A stretch of 40,932 bases of DNA, taken from UHGV virus genome UHGV-2003109; one strand, written 5' to 3'. This document shows, one piece after another, positions 20,700-32,736 of this stretch (position 1 is the first letter of the stretch; each line of letters opens with the position of its first letter). The translations under genes were made by a program, and so were the position numbers. The notes under the pieces are model-generated. The model made no database searches and had not been told where the DNA came from. It saw only the letters and a list, made by a program, of their open reading frames with translations. Origin of the DNA: a virus.

Positions 20700-21193
20700 T
20701 ACTCCTCCTGCTGTAATTCCTCCTCATCATCCGCACCTGCTTCAGTCACCCGCAGGGCTATCTGATCGCGCAGATCATCAATAATGGACTGAACACGGCT
20801 CACAGCGGCAGGCTGCAGACCGCAGTCACGTTCAAGAATATCCGGTAATGTCTCCAGCACCTGCACGACCGCTTTTGCCCAGATGGCAAACTCCCGTCTG
20901 ACATCACTGGCCGGAATGAGTTGTGCCGTTTCCTGTTCGAACTTAAGACGCTCACGTTCAGACTGATACCAGGCTTTGCGCTCATGCGCGTCCATTTCGC
21001 CTTCTGCAACCGGCGGTGGTAATGCCAGAAATGCCGACACAATATCAACCACCCGATAAAGCTTGAGGTTGCTTTCATGCCCCCCTGCAACGGGTAGATT
21101 TTGCAGCCTTGCCGCAGCAGTCTGGCGATGTACACCTGACAATGCCGCCAGTTGACTGATATTCAGCGTCAGATTTTTTAACTCTCGATCCAT
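20699..21193 (-). CDS. nu1: Terminase small subunit
   Basis: 164 aa; N-terminal wHTH (NISQLAALSGVHRQTAAARL); lambda Nu1-like; TAATG overlap with A. Confidence 0.85.
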   Translation of the reverse strand: MDRELKNLTLNISQLAALSGVHRQTAAARLQNLPVAGGHESNLKLYRVVDIVSAFLALPPPVAEGEMDAHERKAWYQSERERLKFEQETAQLIPASDVRREFAIWAKAVVQVLETLPDILERDCGLQPAAVSRVQSIIDDLRDQIALRVTEAGADDEEELQQEE

Positions 21194-21349
21194 ACCCGCT
21201 CCAGAATGTTTTAAACATGCATCTTGCGAACAACTTTAGGCAAACGGTGTTAGCGATGAACAAAAAACAATCAGAATCGACACCATAAAAATAAAACCAC
21301 TGTAATACCAATCAATTACAGTAGTGGTGATGACGAATAAAATTTCAAA

Positions 21350-21400
21350 AACTAGCCTTTTTCCGCGACGCTCCCGCCCCGTGGCAGGGGCCCCCACCGG
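21350..21400. other. Candidate cohesive end site (cosN with adjacent cosB-like region)
   Basis: Minus-strand GGGGCGGGAGCGTCGCGGAAAAAGG...GAAATTTTATTCGTCATCA resembles lambda GGGCGGCGACCTCGCGGGTTTTCGC...GAAAATTTT...CTTCGTCATA; ~160 bp upstream of Nu1. Confidence 0.45.
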
Positions 21401-21739
21401 GAGGACCCGACAGCCTGACAGCCGTGACGAGCATCTGATACAGCGCTTTACATAATGGCATAGGAATAATTCAGAAGGACATCACAGCATGCCCACACAA
21501 ATTAGTGTGAGTGTCCTGTTTCTTCCTACGCACAGGACTGACGAGCATGAGGGGAAAATACGCGAACCATAAATGCCTCATCTTCAGCAATGCAGCCGAA
21601 CAGGACGATATTGTAAATTCACCTAATTACGAGGACATTGCAGTAGTTGAATTGCAGCTCTGTATTAGCCTGCAGTGACAGAATGCGATATTGACTCTGT
21701 CACAGGTGAAATAGTTTGAATGATTAGCAGTTATGGTGC

Positions 21740-21946
21740 TCAGTCAACCACCAGGGAATAATCCTTCGAATTCTTATCGTGCTTCACCAACGCTGCCTCA
21801 ATTGCCCTGAATGCTTCCAGAGACACCTGATGTTCTATACATGCAATTACAACATCCGGGTAACTCATAGAAATGGTGCTATTAAGCATATTTTTTACAC
21901 GAATCAGATCCAACGAGAGTTCATCAGCAGATTGTTCTTTATTCAT
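21740..21946 (-). CDS. Small hypothetical protein, Qin YnfO-like by position
   Basis: 68-aa ORF with ATG start between cos and ydfO. Confidence 0.5.
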
Positions 21947-22246
21947 TTTGTCGCTCCATGCGTTTGCTCGTCATCTAGCGGTTAAAATATTACTTCAAAT
22001 CTTTCTGCATAAAAGAGGAAAAGTATGAAAGTTTGAGTACATCGACCTTACATACATCTGTCGGTTGCATATCCCTCCTGGATGCCAGCAAGGCTCAACT
22101 TTGTTACGCAACCAACACTATTTATTGAAAACAGGCTTAATATTTGACATAAATCATCAACAAAACACAAAGAGGTCAGACCAGATTGAAACAATAAACA
22201 CGATAATGCAAACTACGCGTCATCGTATCACATGGAAGGTTTACCA

Positions 22247-22657
22247 ATGGCTCAGGCTGCCATTTTTAAAGAAATATTCGATCAAGTGCGTAAAGATTTA
22301 AACTGTGAATTATTTTATTCTGAGCTAAAACGTCACAATGTCTCACTTTATATTTACTATTTAGCCACAGATAATATTCACATTGTGTTAGAAAACGACA
22401 ACATAGTGTTAGTAAAAGGACTCAAAAAGGTTGTAAATGTTAAATTCTCCAGAAACAAACATCTTATAGAGACCTCCTATAATAAGTTGAAATCAAAAGA
22501 AATCACATTTCAACAATACAGGGAAAATCTTGCTAAAGCAGGAGTTTTCCGATGGGTTACAAATATCCATGAACACCAAAGATATTACTATACCTTTGAT
22601 AACTCATTACTATTTACTGAAAGCATCCAGAAAACTACACAAATCTTACCACGCTAA
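22247..22657 (+). CDS. ydfO: YdfO-like protein (DUF1398)
   Basis: [30 protein letters not shown]... matches E. coli Qin YdfO; GGAAGG RBS before ATG at 22247. Confidence 0.8.
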
Positions 22658-22808
22658 ACCATAACGTCCGGCTTCTCTCACTCCTGAGCCGGACTGCATT
22701 GGTTTAATAAAAACCATCAACAATTGTGATTTAGATATTCGGAACCATTCAAATATAACAAAACCCCGTAAAAACGAGGTTTATGGATAAATTTTATTAT
22801 TGAATACA

Positions 22809-22985
22809 TCAGATTAAATTAATCTTGACATCATAGCTTTCAAGACCCGTCATTTTTTCCCGTGCGGTAAACTGAATACTGGTAACTTCTTTCCCGGTCT
22901 TTTTCTTAAGTTCAATAATTTTTTTTGTTATATATTCAGAAATATCTGCTTCTGCTTTTGTTTTTAAGTCTTCAATATTCATCAT
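22809..22985 (-). CDS. gnsB: GnsA/GnsB-family small protein (not in ORF track, under 60 aa)
   Basis: Manual translation MMNIEDLKTKAEADISEYITKKIIELKKKTGKEVTSIQFTAREKMTGLESYDVKINLI, close to E. coli GnsB. Confidence 0.75.
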   Translation of the reverse strand: MMNIEDLKTKAEADISEYITKKIIELKKKTGKEVTSIQFTAREKMTGLESYDVKINLI

Positions 22986-23154
22986 TTCCTCTTTTAGTCT
23001 GTTATGACTTTCCAGTTACACTGGTAAGTCGATTATATGGTGCAAACGTGTAAAAGATAAGATGAAACATCGCAATAATCAACATACGATAGTCTAAATT
23101 TTACACAAACAGACAAAGAGAATTTTCCTGAATTATCAATGCAATAGCATCAAA

Positions 23155-23385
23155 TCAACTCAAGAGCCTTATTGCTGCTTCCAGAATTTCTTCTGAAGTA
23201 ACATGCCGATCCGCGGCTACATAAATGACTTTATGATCTCCGGTCAGAGATGGAAACCCTGCGGCCATTACAGTAAGGTGTGTTTTTTCGCCATTTGGAT
23301 ATTCACGCATGATGGTGTTAACTCCAGTCATCGCTGGCACTACCACTGCTGGTTCAGAGTTAAAAAAAACTATGATTTTTTTCAT
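23155..23385 (-). CDS. Small protein, Qin YnfN-like
   Basis: MKKIIVFFNSEPAVVVPAMTGVNTIMREYPNGEKTHL...; ATG at 23385. Confidence 0.6.
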   Translation of the reverse strand: MKKIIVFFNSEPAVVVPAMTGVNTIMREYPNGEKTHLTVMAAGFPSLTGDHKVIYVAADRHVTSEEILEAAIRLLS

Positions 23386-23429
23386 GATGTTACCGTAGTA
23401 TGTGAGTATCCATCGAATAGACACCAAGC

Positions 23430-23449
23430 AAAAAAGCTCCCGAAGGAGC
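23430..23449 (-). terminator. Intrinsic terminator downstream of cspI
   Basis: Minus-strand hairpin GGCTCCTTCGGGAGC followed by TTTTTT. Confidence 0.5.
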
Positions 23450-23656
23450 CTTCATTTTCACTTTTTTAAATCCAACGACAGACGGCTGGCATTTAAGTAT
23501 TGTGAAATATTATCAAATGTAATCATCATTGATTTACAAAAGATACATTTTGCCCCGAAAGGATTCATGTCAGAAACATCAAAAGATGATGTTCTATACT
23601 GGGAACCATGACAACACGGGCATCTAAAGTGAATATGGTTTGTAATATTGTCTACC

Positions 23657-23869
23657 TCAAAGCGCCACTACATGAACAGCGGCAGGACCTTTAGGTCCGT
23701 TCTCAATACCAAATTCAACTTCCTGATTCTCAGTTAATGTTTTGAAATCGTTGCTCTGAATTGCTGAGAAATGGACAAACACATCTTTGCTGCCATCTTT
23801 CGGCGTGATGAAACCAAAACCTTTTTCAGGGTTAAACCATTTCACTAAACCAGTCATTTTGTTAGACAT
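23657..23869 (-). CDS. cspI: Cold shock protein, CspI-like
   Basis: [45 protein letters not shown]... with CSD RNP motifs; ~370 nt upstream leader. Confidence 0.9.
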
Positions 23870-24238
23870 AATTATTACCTTTTGAAGAAATTAGCCCTTG
23901 GGCAGAATGGTCCGAAAAAAAATATCAGAGAGAAAAACCAACAAGGAAATCTCAAGAGGTACAAATAATAAAATTATAACAATGACTGCTTCAGATAAAT
24001 TTGTAACAAACCAGAACACCATTAACGCATGATTAACCACCCATAGCAAGGATTACTTTTGTAAAGAAAAACACAGCAATGAAAGAATAGCTTTATTTAT
24101 TAATAAAACGTGTCATTCTGATTAATGACCTTTTATCTTACCCTTAAGATTTCAGGAATTTTGACTCATGGAAGAGTCCTTTTTATTTAAATTTTACATT
24201 CAGCGATGTAAATGTTCCGATTTAATATTACCCTACAT

Positions 24239-25256
<1,018 letters not shown>

Positions 25257-25260
<4 letters not shown>

Positions 25261-25568
25261 ATATATTTATGATGAGGACGCTCGTGCTTATTGGCAGGAT
25301 TTTCAATCTTAAAGGAGTACTGATGCTGCAGATAAGACTCAACTTTTTCTGACAATTTTTCTGCTACTTCCAGGAAGACTTGCCGGACGCTCCTTCTGGC
25401 TGCTGCCTCATAAAACTCCAGCGCAGCTCCTTCAACACGGTCCATGGCGACATCCAGGCCAAAAATTTCACCGTCAAAGCGTTCTTTGTCCTGTAAGGCT
25501 ACAGTTACCGTAACTTTATTCTCAAAATTACGGACTCCTTTCACAACCAGTTCATAGTCTTGAGTCAT
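25257..25568 (-). CDS. YdfR-like protein (DUF1327)
   Basis: 103-aa ORF between holin and endolysin, as ydfR in Qin; ATGA coupling to the endolysin start. Confidence 0.7.
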
Positions 25569-25572
25569 TGGA

Positions 25573-25788
25573 TTACTCTCCTCTCGCAGCCTTACGCCTG
25601 TCTTCTTTAATCTTGAAATAAAGATTTGTCAGATACGTCAGCAGGCCAAAAACCAGGCTACCCAGCACACCGATTGCAGCCCACTGTGACGGAGTTACTT
25701 TATCGAGTAACTGCAATGCCCAGAAACCAGCATTACCCGCCGATGTGCCATAGGCAACACCTGTTGTTAACTTATCCATTGATTTCAT
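25573..25788 (-). CDS. Class II pinholin, phage 21 S-like, with dual-start motif
   Basis: [71 protein letters not shown] nearly identical to S21; Met1 and Met4 starts. Confidence 0.9.
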
Positions 25789-26007
25789 ATCCTCACCCCG
25801 ATGTACACGGATGGTGCAATATGTTTGAAAAGATCGGAGTCTACGGGGTAGTTTTGACAGCACACGTTGTTCTCAACGGCGCTAAAGAAACATACACATT
25901 AAAAATGTGAGTAATTATTTTGAAAGAAAGTTATATATAAAATAATAATACGAGAAATGTTTTCATATTTAGTGTACTGTATACGGCCATTTATACAGGA
26001 AAAGCCT

Positions 26008-26178
26008 ATGTCAGAACGTAAAGACTCAAAATCACGCCGTAATTATCTCGTTAAATGTTCCTGCCCAAACTGCACCCAAGAGTCAGAACACAGTTTTTCA
26101 AGAGTACAAAAAGGTGCCCTTTTGATCTGCCCTCATTGCAACAAAGTATTCCAGACAAATCTTAAAGCTGTAGCCTGA
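26008..26178 (+). CDS. Small zinc-ribbon protein (CxxC...CxxC)
   Basis: MSERKDSKSRRNYLVKCSCPNCTQESEHSFSRVQKGALLICPHCNKVFQTNLKAVA; two CxxC pairs. Confidence 0.45.
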   Translation: MSERKDSKSRRNYLVKCSCPNCTQESEHSFSRVQKGALLICPHCNKVFQTNLKAVA

Positions 26179-26235
26179 TTGATTTTATTAGTAACAAGTA
26201 TTTTTTATATTTTAATAATATATTTAAAGCAGATA

Positions 26236-26258
26236 ATAAAAAACCCGCCTGAGCGGGT
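26236..26258 (-). terminator. Intrinsic terminator between cspB and the holin
   Basis: Minus-strand hairpin AACCCGCTCAGGCGGGTT followed by TTTTTTATT. Confidence 0.5.
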
Positions 26259-26541
26259 TTGAGATTGTGGTGCTTTTTGTGGGAGTCATCCACTTACGCA
26301 CTTTGTTTTGCCATGCCAGCAGTTAGCTTCTGCTGTAAAACTATTCATGCAGCAAACCTGCACTTCACCACAATGGTTAGCATACTTTTCCTGATTAAGA
26401 TTTTGCCAAATATGCTGGCCATTGTTTCATGTATTGGACCTCCTTACTTTTTATTAAAGAGATCCAATATTCACTACTCTGTCCGTATCTCTACTCAGGC
26501 ATCAGCCTTCTTCGTTATCGTATACAGACGAGCGATGAATT

Positions 26542-26757
26542 TTAATCAGTAATGATGACATTTGCTGCTGCAGGACCTTTAGCACCACTCTCTATAGAGA
26601 AGGTAACCTTTTGACCTTCAAATAAGGTTCGATAATTATCATTCTGAATCGCAGAAAAATGCACAAACACATCTTTACTACCATCAACAGGAGAAATAAA
26701 GCCGAAACCTTTATCAGCGTTAAACCATTTTACTAAACCAGTCATTTTATTTGACAT
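26542..26757 (-). CDS. cspB: Cold shock protein, CspB-like
   Basis: [67 protein letters not shown]. Confidence 0.9.
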
Positions 26758-27057
26758 TCTACATTCCTTAACTTGAGCCTTTCGGCATAAATGGTTTGCA
26801 TAACAGAAACGACTTCGTACTTAATTGGAGAGACTCAAAGAAGGAATAAGTGAATAACACCTGAAATGAGAACTGCTTTAGTAAACTACTTCGTATATCG
26901 TCTGTTCTTCAAACCGACGCAATCATTAACGCATAGTTGAACATATGAAGCAATGTTTATTTTAGACATCCAGCCATCTTCAACCCCATCAAAAAACTAT
27001 AGCTTTCTTCAGGAACGTGTGTATAGTGCGCCAAGTTATCAGTATTAAGGAATTTTT

Positions 27058-27270
27058 TTGTCCCGTAAAATGACAGGAATTGTCAAAACCTTTGACGGCA
27101 AAAGCGGCAAGGGTCTTATCACCCCATCCGATGGTCGTATCGATGTCCAGCTTCATGTTTCAGCGCTCAATCTCCGCGATGCAGAAGAAATTACCACCGG
27201 ATTACGCGTGGAATTTTGCCGGATAAATGGTCTGCGTGGCCCTTCAGCTGCCAATGTTTACCTTTCATGA
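27058..27270 (+). CDS. cspF: Cold shock protein-like, CspF/CspH type
   Basis: [70 protein letters not shown]; TTG start in track. Confidence 0.85.
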
Positions 27271-27562
27271 GCTATATTAAAGCTTTAATTTCAGGCCCCA
27301 TCGGATCACACATGGAGAGTTTTTATGAATAACCCCGTCTGTCTTGATGACTGGTTGATTGGCTTTAAAAGCTTATGCTGTACTTTGGCCGTAATAGCTC
27401 TGCTAATAATATAATAAGCAGACTCATTGTGTTTAGGGACATTGTACTGGAAGAAAACATTTTAAACATCAGGCAAATAACCAAGTCACCAGCTAAATAA
27501 TAAGTTAACAGACATGAGTCCCGGGATGAGATTCAACATTACCATTGCCCCATTTAAAGCAC

Positions 27563-27597
27563 AAAACCCGCTCATCAGCGGGTTTTCTACTTTTTCT
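27563..27597 (-). terminator. Bidirectional intrinsic terminator; candidate tR' downstream of the late promoter
   Basis: Hairpin AAAACCCGCT-CATC-AGCGGGTTTT flanked by T-rich runs on both strands, ~100 nt downstream of Q. Confidence 0.5.
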
Positions 27598-27609
27598 TAA
27601 CGTCGGGTA

Positions 27610-27645
27610 TACAAAGCCCATCGTTGAAAAAATTTTATCCATATT
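27610..27645 (-). promoter_or_regulatory. Candidate late promoter pR' (with qut region) immediately downstream of Q
   Basis: Minus-strand TTGCAT, 17-nt spacer, TAAAAT between Q stop and the terminator hairpin. Confidence 0.35.
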
Positions 27646-27691
27646 TTTTGAAAAATGCAAACATCATGTCGCCATCTTCAGCAAAAATCAT

Positions 27692-28444
27692 TTATCTCGT
27701 CACCTTCCTCAATTGCGCTTCCGCGTATGCTTCTTCCTGCCAGCACTTTGTTACCAGTTTATCAATGACGTCCGCATACCCTTTATACCACTGATAATCG
27801 GTCAGGTCTGGTACCAGCTTCTGGACATGACGTCGTGCCAGCGTGGTCGGTAAACGACTAAACCGGTTTCCATTACAACGCCCACAAATCTTATATACCG
27901 GTACGCCATGAAACCGGGTTCTTTTTTCATCCAGAACAATCCCTTTACCCTTACACCCTCTGCACGCTGTGCTGACTTCGCCCTTACCATGGCAATGCTG
28001 ACATAGTTCCTTCACCCATTCTTCCTTGATTACAGATTCCCCGCATCTGTAGTGTTTCACCACTTCGCGCAATACATTATAAAATCCCGTACCTGAACAA
28101 TGCTCACAGCGAGCCTTACTTGCCGCAGACCTGGAGTAATCAGCAAAGGCAAAATTCACGAGGTAAGGAATAATCTGTAACCGGATTTCTTCACTCAATT
28201 TGTTCAATGTCGGGTTATCCAGTGCCATCGCGTAATTTAGCAGGCCTTCAATCGCAAACTGAGAGTCCTGAACACCAACTTTTGCCAGAAATAAGGCCAA
28301 CCCAAGTGGTGCTTTCGACTGCACCATCCCCTGCGCTGCCATTACATCCGTAATTGTTAAACAACCGGTGCCTGTCGCTGGAGCGTCATCGCTCAATTTT
28401 GGAGATTTTGGGGAGTAATATTTTGGTAAGGCTTCAAGGTTCAT
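27692..28444 (-). CDS. Late antitermination protein Q (phage 82/21 Q family)
   Basis: 250 aa with multiple CxxC zinc-binding motifs (CEHCSGTG, CQHCHGKG, CRGCKGKG, CGRCNG); QuuQ/QuuD-like. Confidence 0.85.
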   Translation of the reverse strand: MNLEALPKYYSPKSPKLSDDAPATGTGCLTITDVMAAQGMVQSKAPLGLALFLAKVGVQDSQFAIEGLLNYAMALDNPTLNKLSEEIRLQIIPYLVNFAFADYSRSAASKARCEHCSGTGFYNVLREVVKHYRCGESVIKEEWVKELCQHCHGKGEVSTACRGCKGKGIVLDEKRTRFHGVPVYKICGRCNGNRFSRLPTTLARRHVQKLVPDLTDYQWYKGYADVIDKLVTKCWQEEAYAEAQLRKVTR

Positions 28445-30105: not shown

Positions 30106-30233
30106 CAGAATCCTTCCGGATAATTAGCTCTCCCCTTTAAGGGACCATCCCTCTTATCCCTGCGCGCTACTTAAGTATTTTTGATTCTATTCCGGCACCG
30201 TCCAGAACTTCAAACGCGTTGAAAATAAAAACA

Positions 30234-30254
30234 AAAACCCGCCGAAGCGGGTTA
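30234..30254 (-). terminator. Strong intrinsic terminator downstream of hok
   Basis: Minus-strand AACCCGCTTCGGCGGGTT followed by TTTTGTTTTTATTTT. Confidence 0.6.
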
Positions 30255-30321
30255 AGTGCGGGTGCGTTGAGGATGCCTGCCACATCAGAGGTGGCGAGGG
30301 ATTTCTCCCTCGCCGGGTCTC

Positions 30322-30477
30322 TTACTCCTCAGGTTCGTAAGCTGTGAAGACAGCGACCTCCGTCTGCCCGGTTCGGATTCGTACCTCGCAGAGGTCTTTC
30401 CTCGTTACCAGTGCCGTCACTATGACGGTTAAACAGATGACGATCAGGGCGATTAACATCGCCTTTTGCTGCTTCAT
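30322..30477 (-). CDS. hokD: Hok-family type I toxin (HokD/RelF-identical peptide)
   Basis: MKQQKAMLIALIVICLTVIVTALVTRKDLCEVRIRTGQTEVAVFTAYEPEE; AAGGAGA RBS; track ORF is an in-frame N-terminal extension. Confidence 0.9.
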   Translation of the reverse strand: MKQQKAMLIALIVICLTVIVTALVTRKDLCEVRIRTGQTEVAVFTAYEPEE

Positions 30478-30659
30478 AGCCTGCTTCTCCTTGCCTTTCG
30501 GCACGTAAGAGGCTAACCTACATGTGTCTAGCATGAAATTGGCCTCAGATTAATGTTAAGCGTCTTGCAGGACGCGTAATGTTAACTGGGGCTTTTCTCT
30601 ATCTGCCGTTGGTGTTCATGCCCGAGGCAGATAGCCTCAAGCACCCGCAGCAATTTTAC

Positions 30660-30767
30660 TTAACTCCCTCTACCTCGCCAATCAGAAAATCGCTCCATGA
30701 AAGCAACAACAAGACAATAAATTACCAGCACAGCCACAATAGCCAACACACACGTCAGAGCCAACAC
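30660..30767 (-). CDS. Candidate 35-aa hydrophobic small membrane peptide (GTG start), not in ORF track
   Basis: Minus strand AGGAGG-TTATC-GTG TTG GCT...; translation VLALTCVLAIVAVLVIYCLVVAFMERFSDWRGRGS; inverted repeat immediately downstream. Confidence 0.3.
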   Translation of the reverse strand: MLALTCVLAIVAVLVIYCLVVAFMERFSDWRGRGS

Positions 30768-30937
30768 GATAACCTCCTGTATTGGACGTATACCAATACT
30801 GATAAATATGAGACTGCCTCTTCAATGATTCAATACAACTATTGGGTGTTCATCTAAAGAATGAAATGAAGGTAAAGTGTATATTTCAGCTCAGCGAAGT
30901 TAGAACCGTATACTCTCGATACTAACTTCGCATTGTG

Positions 30938-31969
30938 CTACCAATTGATGAAGTCAGTGATGTTATCCAACCTGGTTACAGTAACTTCCCGTCCTAACAA
31001 ATATTGCCAGTATGCCTCACGGTCATTTTGTTCACCTGCACCGCTCCACTCAATTACTCTTAAATGCTTAGAGGTTAGGTAAGGTCGAATAAGCAGGTTA
31101 AGGTGTTCATCGAGGCCAGAATAACCAAACAGTATTATTTCTTCTGATTCAAATAATGCAAACTGCAAATAATCCCAGTACGTAGAAAGAACATTAGATG
31201 CTGCTATAACTGACGGTTTCCTTTTTATATGCGTTAACACTATATGTTCGCTAGGCTCATCCCTGTCAACCGTAAGTTGAGAACGTGAAAGTTTTAAGAC
31301 GGTCTCACCCTGATTAACAAATAGTGGTGAGCCATGCAAATGCAAATAATAACCAAACCTACGATTATATTTCCGTTCGAGCGCTTCGGCGGAAAATCCG
31401 TGGCCTAACATCCCATCAACCAGATACCCATCATACCCGCTGAATATATCATTATCTATGAATGAGTTGTATAATAATTTGTCATAGTTTAATGTCGCAA
31501 TATGAGTGCGTGTATTTTTTACAAATTCCACTAGCGCATTTTCGAATCTTTGCGGCAACCCTTCACCGTAATTATGCAAACTAGTTGCAACTTTGTGGAT
31601 ATAAGTGGCGGTGATTTCGGGGAAGTTTAGTCCATCGTCAGTAAGCCAATGCTCGTTTCCTTCTCCAATTTGCGCAAGAGCCTTACAATATGTGATAGCT
31701 TGGTGAAGGGTATCCAACTCATGTTCCCCTGCCGGTGGACCTTGCCGCTGAAGACAGCGTTCGATAAGTTGCTTATGGACATCGTTTAAGAAATTGGATC
31801 GATGCCAAATTTCTGCCAACGCCCTGTCTAAGGAAAAATGAGCAGGATCTAAAGCCATACCAAGACCGTTGCCGAATATTATTAATTTTCGTGCCATATA
31901 GGAGGACTCATGTTGGAATAATCTTGAGTAGCGTAACGCGATACGCCGCAGTTTGGAAGTAATATACAT
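30938..31969 (-). CDS. SIR2-like (SIR2_2 / DHS-like NAD-binding) stand-alone protein; candidate defence NADase
   Basis: Motifs LIIFGNGLGMALD (Gly-rich N-terminus), ATLNYDKLL (conserved Asn) and YLHLHGS (conserved His), then ILFGYSGLDEH; AT-rich gene; start at 31969 or 31897. Confidence 0.65.
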   Translation of the reverse strand: MYITSKLRRIALRYSRLFQHESSYMARKLIIFGNGLGMALDPAHFSLDRALAEIWHRSNFLNDVHKQLIERCLQRQGPPAGEHELDTLHQAITYCKALAQIGEGNEHWLTDDGLNFPEITATYIHKVATSLHNYGEGLPQRFENALVEFVKNTRTHIATLNYDKLLYNSFIDNDIFSGYDGYLVDGMLGHGFSAEALERKYNRRFGYYLHLHGSPLFVNQGETVLKLSRSQLTVDRDEPSEHIVLTHIKRKPSVIAASNVLSTYWDYLQFALFESEEIILFGYSGLDEHLNLLIRPYLTSKHLRVIEWSGAGEQNDREAYWQYLLGREVTVTRLDNITDFINW

Positions 31970-32313
31970 TCCGTTTGATTACACTCGATATTACAGACTT
32001 GCATGCAAAGAAATCCAAGCTGTTAGGTAAATAGAGACCGCAGAGGAAAGTGATATAGTCTATAAAAACCAACGAATAGCGGCATGTCTTCTGCGACCTC
32101 CATTTACCCAAATAGCACTTATCTAGTAAAATTCAATGATGTATTGCATAGTATTTCGTATGAATTGATATAGATAAGAATCAGTCTTAATTCATTAGCA
32201 AATATTGAAACTCAAAATGTCTGTTTTTGATACAAAGCTGACAACCAGACCAGTTCTAGCCATGTGCCACCAAAATGTCAATTCATATCTGAAGTAATGC
32301 TCTTTAATTTCGT

Positions 32314-32736
32314 TCACCGTGGTAATGTTCGAATATTTCCCTTATAAAATGCCAAAATCCGCTGCATAACTTCGCTCTTCCGGCACTCGCGACAGATTAT
32401 GTTCATACGCCTGTCGTAGCGACGTATTTCTCCGTCAGGTAATGACCAGATAAGGTCCGGATCAACCACAGCAGGTTTCTTCACCTTTGCCCTCGAGAGT
32501 TTTTTGCGGGCGTTTTGCCAGTCCTTACGCGCCTGTTCAGAGGGGAATAACCCGTAGCCGGAGTTGTATACATCGCCACTGGCAACCAGCTCTCTGGCAA
32601 GAACGCTCATCAGATATCTTGTCGCACCTGTTTTAGCTTCCAGTTGCCGTAGCGTCTCACGACCGCTCTGGCGCACGAGTTCCACCACCTGCCCTTTAAT
32701 TTTTTCCCGCTCTTCTTGTGTAAAAACTTTTGCCAC
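32314..32736 (-). CDS. Hypothetical basic protein downstream of the replication gene (possible DNA-binding protein)
   Basis: Non-ATG start with AAGGGGG RBS; Lys/Arg-rich with CRECRK motif; occupies the lambda P position but unlike P. Confidence 0.5.
   Translation of the reverse strand: MAKVFTQEEREKIKGQVVELVRQSGRETLRQLEAKTGATRYLMSVLARELVASGDVYNSGYGLFPSEQARKDWQNARKKLSRAKVKKPAVVDPDLIWSLPDGEIRRYDRRMNIICRECRKSEVMQRILAFYKGNIRTLPR

Follow-up and report, generated by a model that had tools for sequence, protein, structure and literature searches.

Does a lambdoid prophage of Escherichia coli carry a complete enzyme of antiphage defence in the form of a single gene? The question is raised by UHGV-2003109, a virus genome of 40,932 nt that we analysed as a whole and refer to as the window. 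This DNA represents an entire lambdoid prophage of E. coli, of the Qin type, which runs from the tail genes to the integrase and is integrated beside rspB/ynfA. Between its DUF977 and hok/sok genes, on the minus strand, lies a gene that encodes a SIR2-family protein of 319 amino acids (aa). Coordinates given below are positions in the whole window, except where a locus in another genome is named, and residues of the SIR2 protein are numbered in the 319-aa form, which begins at the start called by the Prokaryotic Genome Annotation Pipeline (PGAP). We consider it moderately likely that this protein is an autonomous abortive-infection effector that consumes nicotinamide adenine dinucleotide (NAD+), one whose activity would be suppressed by its own large helical small domain, by oligomerisation or by both, and switched on by phage.

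The longest open reading frame (ORF) at this position (30938-31969, minus strand) is 343 aa long. A reading made from the letters alone, here called the original prediction, had pointed within this ORF to a Gly-rich stretch (LIIFGNGLGMALD) and to the motifs ATLNYDKLL and YLHLHGS, and we find all three exactly as given. The identical gene in E. coli strain N1420 has been annotated by RefSeq/PGAP as a 319-aa "SIR2 family protein" (WP_001533280.1). Because PGAP already names the gene in this way, the accompanying suggestion that the protein might be undescribed does not stand at the level of annotation.

Profile match, predicted structure and conserved residues agree with the SIR2_2/DHS-like NAD-binding fold that had been proposed, including the Asn and His residues that had been named. 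The window protein scores 26.5 bits with the Pfam profile SIR2_2 (PF13289; E = 7.5e-6), narrowly above the curated threshold of 24.5, and 41 of 42 family members match the same profile at E <= 1e-3. The predicted structure adopts the three-dimensional SIR2 fold, and in this model a strand (residues 4-8) leads into a helix (residues 11-16) at the Gly-rich loop. The N-x-D...H set of putative catalytic residues is intact, and its conservation across homologs is given in Table 1. In PsSIR2 the putative catalytic residues are N163 and D165, and H212 lies 49 residues beyond N163 (PMC11472057); the Asn-x-Asp arrangement of the window protein matches this pair, with a spacing of 51 residues between N137 and H188 as against 49. 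The protein is not a classical sirtuin of the CobB/SIRT kind, as it has neither a zinc-binding Cys4 (CxxC...CxxC) small domain nor a match to PF02146. Searches of PHROGs and NCBIfam with the window protein gave no matches, and no SIR2 entry in the PDB was matched at the sequence level, whether by the protein or by the family profile.

By several independent tests, the SIR2 protein stands alone. The original prediction had seen no TIR, HerA, SLOG or Argonaute gene nearby, and this extends to the entire prophage: neither its annotation nor a PADLOC scan of the 49 window ORFs revealed any of these or another defence component, the scan returning only cold-shock-domain and repressor-type helix-turn-helix matches. 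We also clustered the neighbours within four genes on either side of 84 related loci from Gamma-, Beta- and Alphaproteobacteria, Chloroflexi and Verrucomicrobiota, and no recurrent partner was found among them. The biggest neighbour cluster was a generic family of ~326 aa that occurs at varied positions in 6 loci and includes a LysR regulator.

The independence of the gene is also evident from its mobility in chromosomal integrons. In V. cholerae (locus L097, 5847-7093) and V. parahaemolyticus (L099, 5851-7090), the 319-aa ORF lies alone between attC repeats (V. cholerae repeats, VCR), in cassettes of 1,112 bp and 1,120 bp, respectively, that have a 5' leader of ~20 nt and sit within typical chromosomal-integron arrays. 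The V. parahaemolyticus cassette is near a tyrosine recombinase of the integron-integrase type and beside a ccdAB cassette. When we scanned for attC sites, with calibration on in-gene control segments (n = 267), an attC-like hairpin was found right after the SIR2 stop codon in 12 of 89 loci, compared with 3 of the 267 controls. The layout is canonical in nine of the twelve (L097, L099, L009, L012, L014, L018, L058, L076 and L085), which come from Vibrio, Aliivibrio, Pseudoalteromonas, Psychromonas, Marinomonas, Saccharospirillum, Brumicola and a zetaproteobacterium. SIR2 homologs in Vibrio and other marine bacteria are thus single-gene, attC-bounded cassettes, which in Vibrio belong to chromosomal integrons, whereas the scan found no attC at the E. 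coli copy, which is not an integron cassette. Chromosomal integrons have been reported as biobanks of defence genes (PMC13434031). A SIR2 cassette is not mentioned in the accessible papers on integron-borne defence; it may have been tested earlier in the V. parahaemolyticus integron work (Getz et al. 2025).

An exhaustive profile search across 1.84 billion representatives (clusters at 50% identity) gave 351 family matches at E <= 1e-3 and 199 at E <= 1e-30. The family is single-domain: the best 150 representatives are all at most 397 aa long, and the full-length ones have ~310-365 aa. Weak family-wide matches to SIR2_2, DUF4917, Aga_SIR2 and PDC-S21 (best E 1e-7 to 1e-9) indicate a discrete sister family. 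The distribution is that of a patchy accessory gene. In E. coli it is present in 46 of 5,426 complete genomes, always in single copy and on the chromosome, and it occurs as two alleles, one in 16 genomes at >=99% and the other in 30 genomes at ~89.5% nucleotide identity. The whole hokD-cargo-DUF977 segment is covered in the same 46 genomes, and therefore every E. coli copy occupies a single slot. Among 72,556 plasmids there was a single homolog, on Marinobacter pMAQU01, among insertion sequence elements. The ratio of nonsynonymous to synonymous substitution rates (dN/dS) is 0.14 when the two E. coli alleles are compared and 0.075-0.11 for orthologs further removed, and the replacements are spread over the length of the protein. 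These values show that the SIR2 gene is functional and under purifying selection, and there is no gene-wide sign of an arms race.

Separately, we observed that a single sublineage with the second E. coli allele (UMNF18 and related porcine enterotoxigenic E. coli) has an IS481-family transposase between hokD and the SIR2 gene (L091, 1750-2823); the SIR2 ORF is intact there.

Particular lineages of the family carry additional elements. In five alphaproteobacterial loci (L051, L066, L069, L074 and L075, from Shimia, Defluviimonas, Erythrobacter, Qipengyuania and a Rhodobacteraceae genome), a gene of ~200 aa abuts or overlaps the SIR2 start, with gaps of -3 to 13 nt, and the pair looks like a lineage-specific two-gene operon. 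In Vibrio, N-terminal domains of 190-220 aa are fused to the SIR2 core in P0060 (541 aa, V. aestuarianus) and P0065 (506 aa, V. parahaemolyticus; 59 member sequences). These two domains appear homologous, sharing the motifs YLH[IV]DLS and GQ[IV].CA.SC, and may be sensor domains. A Pfam search identified no domain either in the alphaproteobacterial upstream gene or in the Vibrio extensions. Such lineage-specific elements, to which the leader motif of the enteric members can be added, together with closest structural relatives that act only in a HerA complex, would suit an effector, defensive or toxic, that depends on something else. Such a protein would act with an unlinked host factor or with a partner whose gene lies elsewhere (e.g. 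a HerA-like ATPase or a signal-producing enzyme), or the 24-residue enteric leader would serve it as a cis regulator or antitoxin. We regard this as improbable, because no partner recurs over the 84 loci, HerA, TIR and SLOG are missing from the prophage, most of the family lacks the leader, and the integron cassettes move among differing genomic backgrounds with the 319-aa ORF as their only gene.

The original prediction had further raised the possibility that a neighbouring small ORF acts as partner. Two candidates were examined and rejected. The 40-aa ORF at 32195-32317, which overlaps the DUF977 stop codon in a GTGA arrangement, is not preserved in the allele carried by O55:H7 and E. albertii. 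Over the region upstream of the SIR2 gene, the two E. coli alleles agree to ~85-90% and differ by indels of 1, 3 and 7 nt. The 35-aa ORF at 30660-30767 belongs to the prophage backbone and is also found in phages that do not have the SIR2 gene. With one candidate not conserved, the other part of the backbone, and the Vibrio cassettes holding a single ORF, the idea of a small partner was abandoned.

How did the gene come to be in this prophage? The genes follow one another on the minus strand in the order cro-like, YdaT/cII-like, an O-like replication gene, DUF977 (Ren-like), the SIR2 cargo, the 35-aa ORF, hok/sok, rem, DUF968 and the Q antiterminator, in agreement with the original placement of the SIR2 gene in the nin-region equivalent. 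The contents of the slot between DUF977 and hokD differ among E. coli prophages. The slot is empty in BL21(DE3), holds relBE in the Qin prophage of K-12, QueH and a methyltransferase in E. coli C, and QueH with a KwaB-like gene in WCHEC000837; in other strains it contains DUF5677, an alpha/beta hydrolase, DUF4406/DUF7167, or runs of hypothetical genes. The composition of the cargo is also deviant: its GC content is 39.6%, against 49.2% and 48.0% in the left and right flanks, respectively, and 49.1% in the window as a whole. At third codon positions, the GC fraction of the SIR2 gene is 0.375, as against ~0.51 for neighbouring genes, and only 8% of 1.5-kb windows are equally AT-rich, all of them within two other tracts. 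The windowed GC check, falling to ~0.39 at the cargo, confirmed the AT-rich insertion that had been described at 30540-32310; its boundaries had to be redrawn, since 30540-30836 is shared prophage backbone, comprising the hok mRNA leader/sok and a small hydrophobic ORF. Break points elsewhere are 30792|32440 in BL21 and 30491 in K-12, and the right edge of the QueH/KwaB variant is at 32216. Because they vary from prophage to prophage, they indicate mosaic recombination of the kind typical of lambdoid phages, without site-specific insertion. The cargo segment is horizontally acquired accessory DNA in a variable lambdoid slot, and its variable content between conserved backbone, with deviant composition, is that of lambdoid accessory (moron-type) cargo.

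A position shared with the relBE of K-12 and adjoining hok/sok, like the ccdAB cassette that adjoins the SIR2 cassette in V. parahaemolyticus, brings to mind a selfish addiction or stabilisation module, or neutral hitch-hiking cargo, that would benefit the mobile element without defending the host; that no cognate trigger is known would also fit. We think this very improbable. Purifying selection is strong across classes and the active site is invariant, both of which favour a selected enzymatic function, there is no conserved antitoxin candidate, and toxin-antitoxin and defence roles can in any case coexist.

A role in defence is the default expectation for a prokaryotic SIR2_2 protein. As an abortive-infection effector, the 319-residue enzyme would be self-sufficient, and it would bind and cleave NAD+ rather than act as a deacylase. 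In an uninfected lysogen it would be kept inactive, probably through its own large helical small domain and/or through self-assembly, as in the SIR2 subunit of SIR2-HerA; autoinhibition by a helical small domain and/or oligomerisation has been documented for PsSIR2 (PMC11472057). Infection by another phage would switch the enzyme on and NAD+ would be depleted. This depletion would then stop phage replication, and the prophage-carrying population would be protected.

The immediate neighbours of the gene in diverse loci bear on this proposal. By a rough count, which is not a formal statistic, ~15 of 114 match strong defence models, suggesting some enrichment; they include type I specificity subunits, mad3/mad8 of MADS, AriA of PARIS, HEC-05, a reverse transcriptase, type IV RecD and PDC-S31/S45/S54. 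As one example, in Serratia plymuthica (L003, 4812-6854) a 680-aa P-loop protein, whose C-terminal region matches the PADLOC model PDC-M36A (E = 5.9e-21), is encoded 147 nt upstream of the SIR2 homolog, and a Fic-domain gene lies downstream. This neighbourhood is probably a small defence island.

A number of observations weigh against a defensive function. The protein contains no sensor domain, and the mechanism by which it would be triggered is purely our inference. A sigma-70 consensus scan of the minus strand from DUF977 to the SIR2 gene gave no match, and no strong promoter of its own was found. Being in the orientation of the early-right operon, the gene would at least be transcribed upon induction, but expression in the lysogen is left as a real gap for the defence hypothesis. 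The matches to defence hidden Markov models are weak (E 1e-5 to 1e-9) and partial. A tblastn search of 50,697 phage genomes returned no homolog and BFVD held no close structural relative, so that the gene is not a common phage moron. In the searchable library, no literature was found on WP_001533280.1, on PDC-S21, or on a stand-alone SIR2 of this kind. The mean column identity of 64% across classes is unusually high for an immune protein. Many of the neighbours in other loci are housekeeping genes, and in Klebsiella and Aeromonas the SIR2 gene is a singleton between such genes. In four genera of Rhodobacteraceae (L073, L078, L081 and L082) a homolog with 39-42% identity is directly downstream of pncB, the NAD salvage gene for nicotinate phosphoribosyltransferase. 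In L073 the interval is 21 nt and an ArfB-like gene follows, and clustering gives the same neighbours in all four genera. This synteny looks like that of a housekeeping gene and hints at a non-defence role in that clade. Finally, although the window protein does not match DUF4917 (PF16263) at E <= 1, 27 of 42 homologs do so weakly (best E 7.1e-8); as judged by these profiles, DUF4917 is a neighbouring family within the same superfamily. The report on the DUF4917 protein SliP of C. jejuni describes a deacetylase that is secreted, rather than a protein of defence (PMC10421069).

The last of these points, the DUF4917 similarity and the deacetylase activity of SliP, could be explained together with the strong conservation of the family and the conserved site downstream of pncB if the protein were an NAD+-dependent modifier of a host or phage protein, either a lysine deacylase or a mono-ADP-ribosyltransferase. 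Its function would then lie in lysogenic conversion or regulation, not in NAD-depleting immunity. We judge this explanation unlikely, since the zinc module is missing from the window protein and its fold is closer to that of the defence SIR2s. The NAD+-consuming effector is the reading that we retain.

We put forward, tentatively and as a possibility that we hold with some doubt, a stronger form of the effector proposal: the protein may be the smallest autonomous SIR2 immune effector, a bare domain of 319 residues that would sense infection and deplete NAD+ without a sensor domain, a partner or a signalling molecule. Sensing would occur through the conserved helical small domain or a change in self-assembly, and the small size would permit the spread of the gene in integron cassettes and prophages. 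If this is true, a bare SIR2 domain would show the minimum that is needed to keep an NAD+-degrading enzyme (NADase) silent and to activate it during infection. It would provide a small and tractable model for studies of structure and trigger, and would add a defence gene that is barely detected by current tools. If the protein is instead a protein-modifying, sirtuin-like enzyme, it would caution against calling every prokaryotic SIR2_2 protein defence. The family connects three reservoirs of accessory genes, namely the lambdoid prophage slot, chromosomal integrons and islands.

The features of the segment and of its immediate surroundings are collected in Table 1.

Table 1. Coordinates of the SIR2 gene, its cargo segment and adjoining elements in the window
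Feature	Position	Strand	Remarks
AT-rich variable cargo segment	30837..32334		39.6% GC; backbone common with phage HannyBb stops at 30836 and restarts at 32335
SIR2-fold protein, 319 aa	30938..31897	-	Starts at Met25 of the long ORF; functional unit; PGAP WP_001533280.1 "SIR2 family protein"
Gly-rich NAD-binding loop after strand 1, codons G9-N10-G11-L12-G13	31859..31873	-	G9, N10, G11 and G13 conserved >=90% in 42 diverse homologs
N137-Y138-D139 codons, putative catalytic Asn-x-Asp	31481..31489	-	Invariant across 42 homologs
H186-L187-H188 codons of HLHGS motif	31334..31342	-	H186, L187, H188, G189 and S190 invariant (42 homologs); H188 is the putative catalytic His
24-codon in-frame leader (MYITSKLRRIALRYSRLFQHESSY)	31898..31969	-	Conserved core R-[IL]-x-[LF]-[RH]-Y-[PS]-x-L-F; enterobacterial clade only
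AT-rich non-coding upstream region	31970..32334	-	No conserved ORF; presumed regulatory
Hairpin just 3' of stop codon (GCGAAGTTAG...CTAACTTCGC)	30894..30931	-	No T-run; this allele only
Unannotated 35-aa strongly hydrophobic ORF (MLALTCVLAIVAVLVIYCLVVAFMERFSDWRGRGS)	30660-30767	-	AGGAGG ribosome-binding site, GTG start; between cargo and hok/sok
hok mRNA leader/sok	30472-30646		Rfam RF01794, 115 bits

The 24-codon leader that separates the 343-aa ORF from the 319-aa form is open in frame with the SIR2 ORF in E. coli, E. albertii and three diverged metagenomic homologs. Its core motif has been kept through synonymous codon changes in these and in Klebsiella, and outside the core the leader diverges fast, with 11-18 of the 24 codons nonsynonymous. 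Klebsiella retains the motif without a canonical start codon, and in Serratia it is in a different frame with a stop codon 13 nt ahead of the main ATG. The motif is not present in the Vibrio cassettes or in distant clades. A Shine-Dalgarno-like GAGG precedes the Met25 ATG by 9-10 nt in most sequences, and in an AlphaFold2 model of the 343-aa isoform the leader forms a helix of moderate confidence (predicted local distance difference test score, pLDDT, 66-73). The leader could be an N-terminal extension, a leader peptide or an upstream ORF. The sequence upstream of the 319-aa ORF (31898-32313) has a GC content of 36.1%, and positions 32216-32334 are common to the QueH/KwaB cargo variant.

The hairpin just 3' of the SIR2 stop codon was considered as the remnant of an attC site in E. 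coli and rejected, because the order of its core sites is wrong and its match in the attC scan is atypical. The O55:H7 allele lacks window positions 30826-30922, and the hairpin is hence restricted to the window allele. A version of the hydrophobic 35-aa ORF that has a shorter C-terminus is kept in the O55:H7 and UMNF18 prophages; the ORF lies within a backbone region common to BL21 and several phages. It had no Pfam match, and may be a small membrane protein or toxin-like peptide.

In an Rfam scan of the flanks, sok (RF01794) was the sole known RNA, all other matches being below threshold. One of these sub-threshold matches, to the Hfq-binding small RNA isrK, is just 3' of hokD (30232-30313, minus strand; 25.7 bits against a gathering score of 50) and overlaps a terminator-like hairpin at 30236-30253. 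Two further tracts of the window are as AT-rich as the SIR2 cargo (21151-24849 and 25401-27799). By alignment to strain N1420, the cold-shock genes cspI, cspB, cspF and ynfQ lie in this part of the prophage, together with gnsB, the lysis genes and a DUF1398 gene. Three ORFs of the window match CSD_V, the cold-shock-domain model of PADLOC.

As a mobile element, the SIR2 cargo is comparable to the lambdoid morons and integron cassettes that serve as reservoirs of defence genes, with which it shares a variable slot, conserved flanks, deviant GC content and a range of alternative occupants, relBE and a KwaB-like gene among them. A moron would have a promoter and terminator of its own, allowing expression from the repressed prophage; the promoter scan gave no match upstream of the SIR2 gene, and no terminator-like site was found by scan 3' of it.

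To our knowledge, every characterised SIR2-based antiphage system couples its NADase to a sensor or partner, be it HerA, SLOG and TIR, Argonaute, STAND or a large C-terminal domain. By comparison with these systems, the window protein appears to resemble their SIR2 effectors, yet it lacks defining features of each. DSR1 and DSR2 have ~1,000 aa with a sensor region of ~700 aa, and at 319 aa the window protein is, as had been remarked at the outset, far smaller; DSR models were not among the PADLOC matches of the window protein and family members. Thoeris ThsA has a C-terminal SLOG (or Macro) domain and a TIR partner, ThsB, neither of which is found here. SPARSA, the short prokaryotic Argonaute system with SIR2-APAZ, is defined by an APAZ region and an Argonaute partner; the window protein has no APAZ region and the window no Argonaute, and matches to the PADLOC model Aga_SIR2 are weak and cover the SIR2 core (E 6.5e-7 for the window protein; 42 of 42 members, best 1.2e-8). 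Avs5 couples SIR2 to a STAND NTPase, and KomC of Kongming acts with KomA/B, whereas the window protein is a SIR2 domain alone.

The single-gene SIR2-like families are nearer in architecture. The PADLOC candidate PDC-S21 and DUF4917, which includes SliP, are of similar size (profiles of ~336 aa) and show weak reciprocal similarity between profiles. The window protein matches positions 23-211 of the 336 positions of PDC-S21 with E = 1.4e-5; among the 42 family members, 32 reach E <= 1e-3, with 6.9e-9 as the best value. Matches of this strength suggest a relative rather than a member of PDC-S21, which is itself an unvalidated candidate. In structure, the nearest system is SIR2-HerA/Nezha. It has an adjacent HerA-type ATPase/helicase, which the window SIR2 gene lacks both in its prophage and as a recurrent neighbour across the 84 loci, and its SIR2 subunit, which forms a dodecamer or tetradecamer (PDB 8w9l, 8j4u and 8uae; 335-408 aa as against 319 aa) is only 14-18% identical in sequence. 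The fold of this subunit is nevertheless more similar to the predicted monomer of the window protein than that of any other family, making it the closest structural relative of the SIR2 protein described here.

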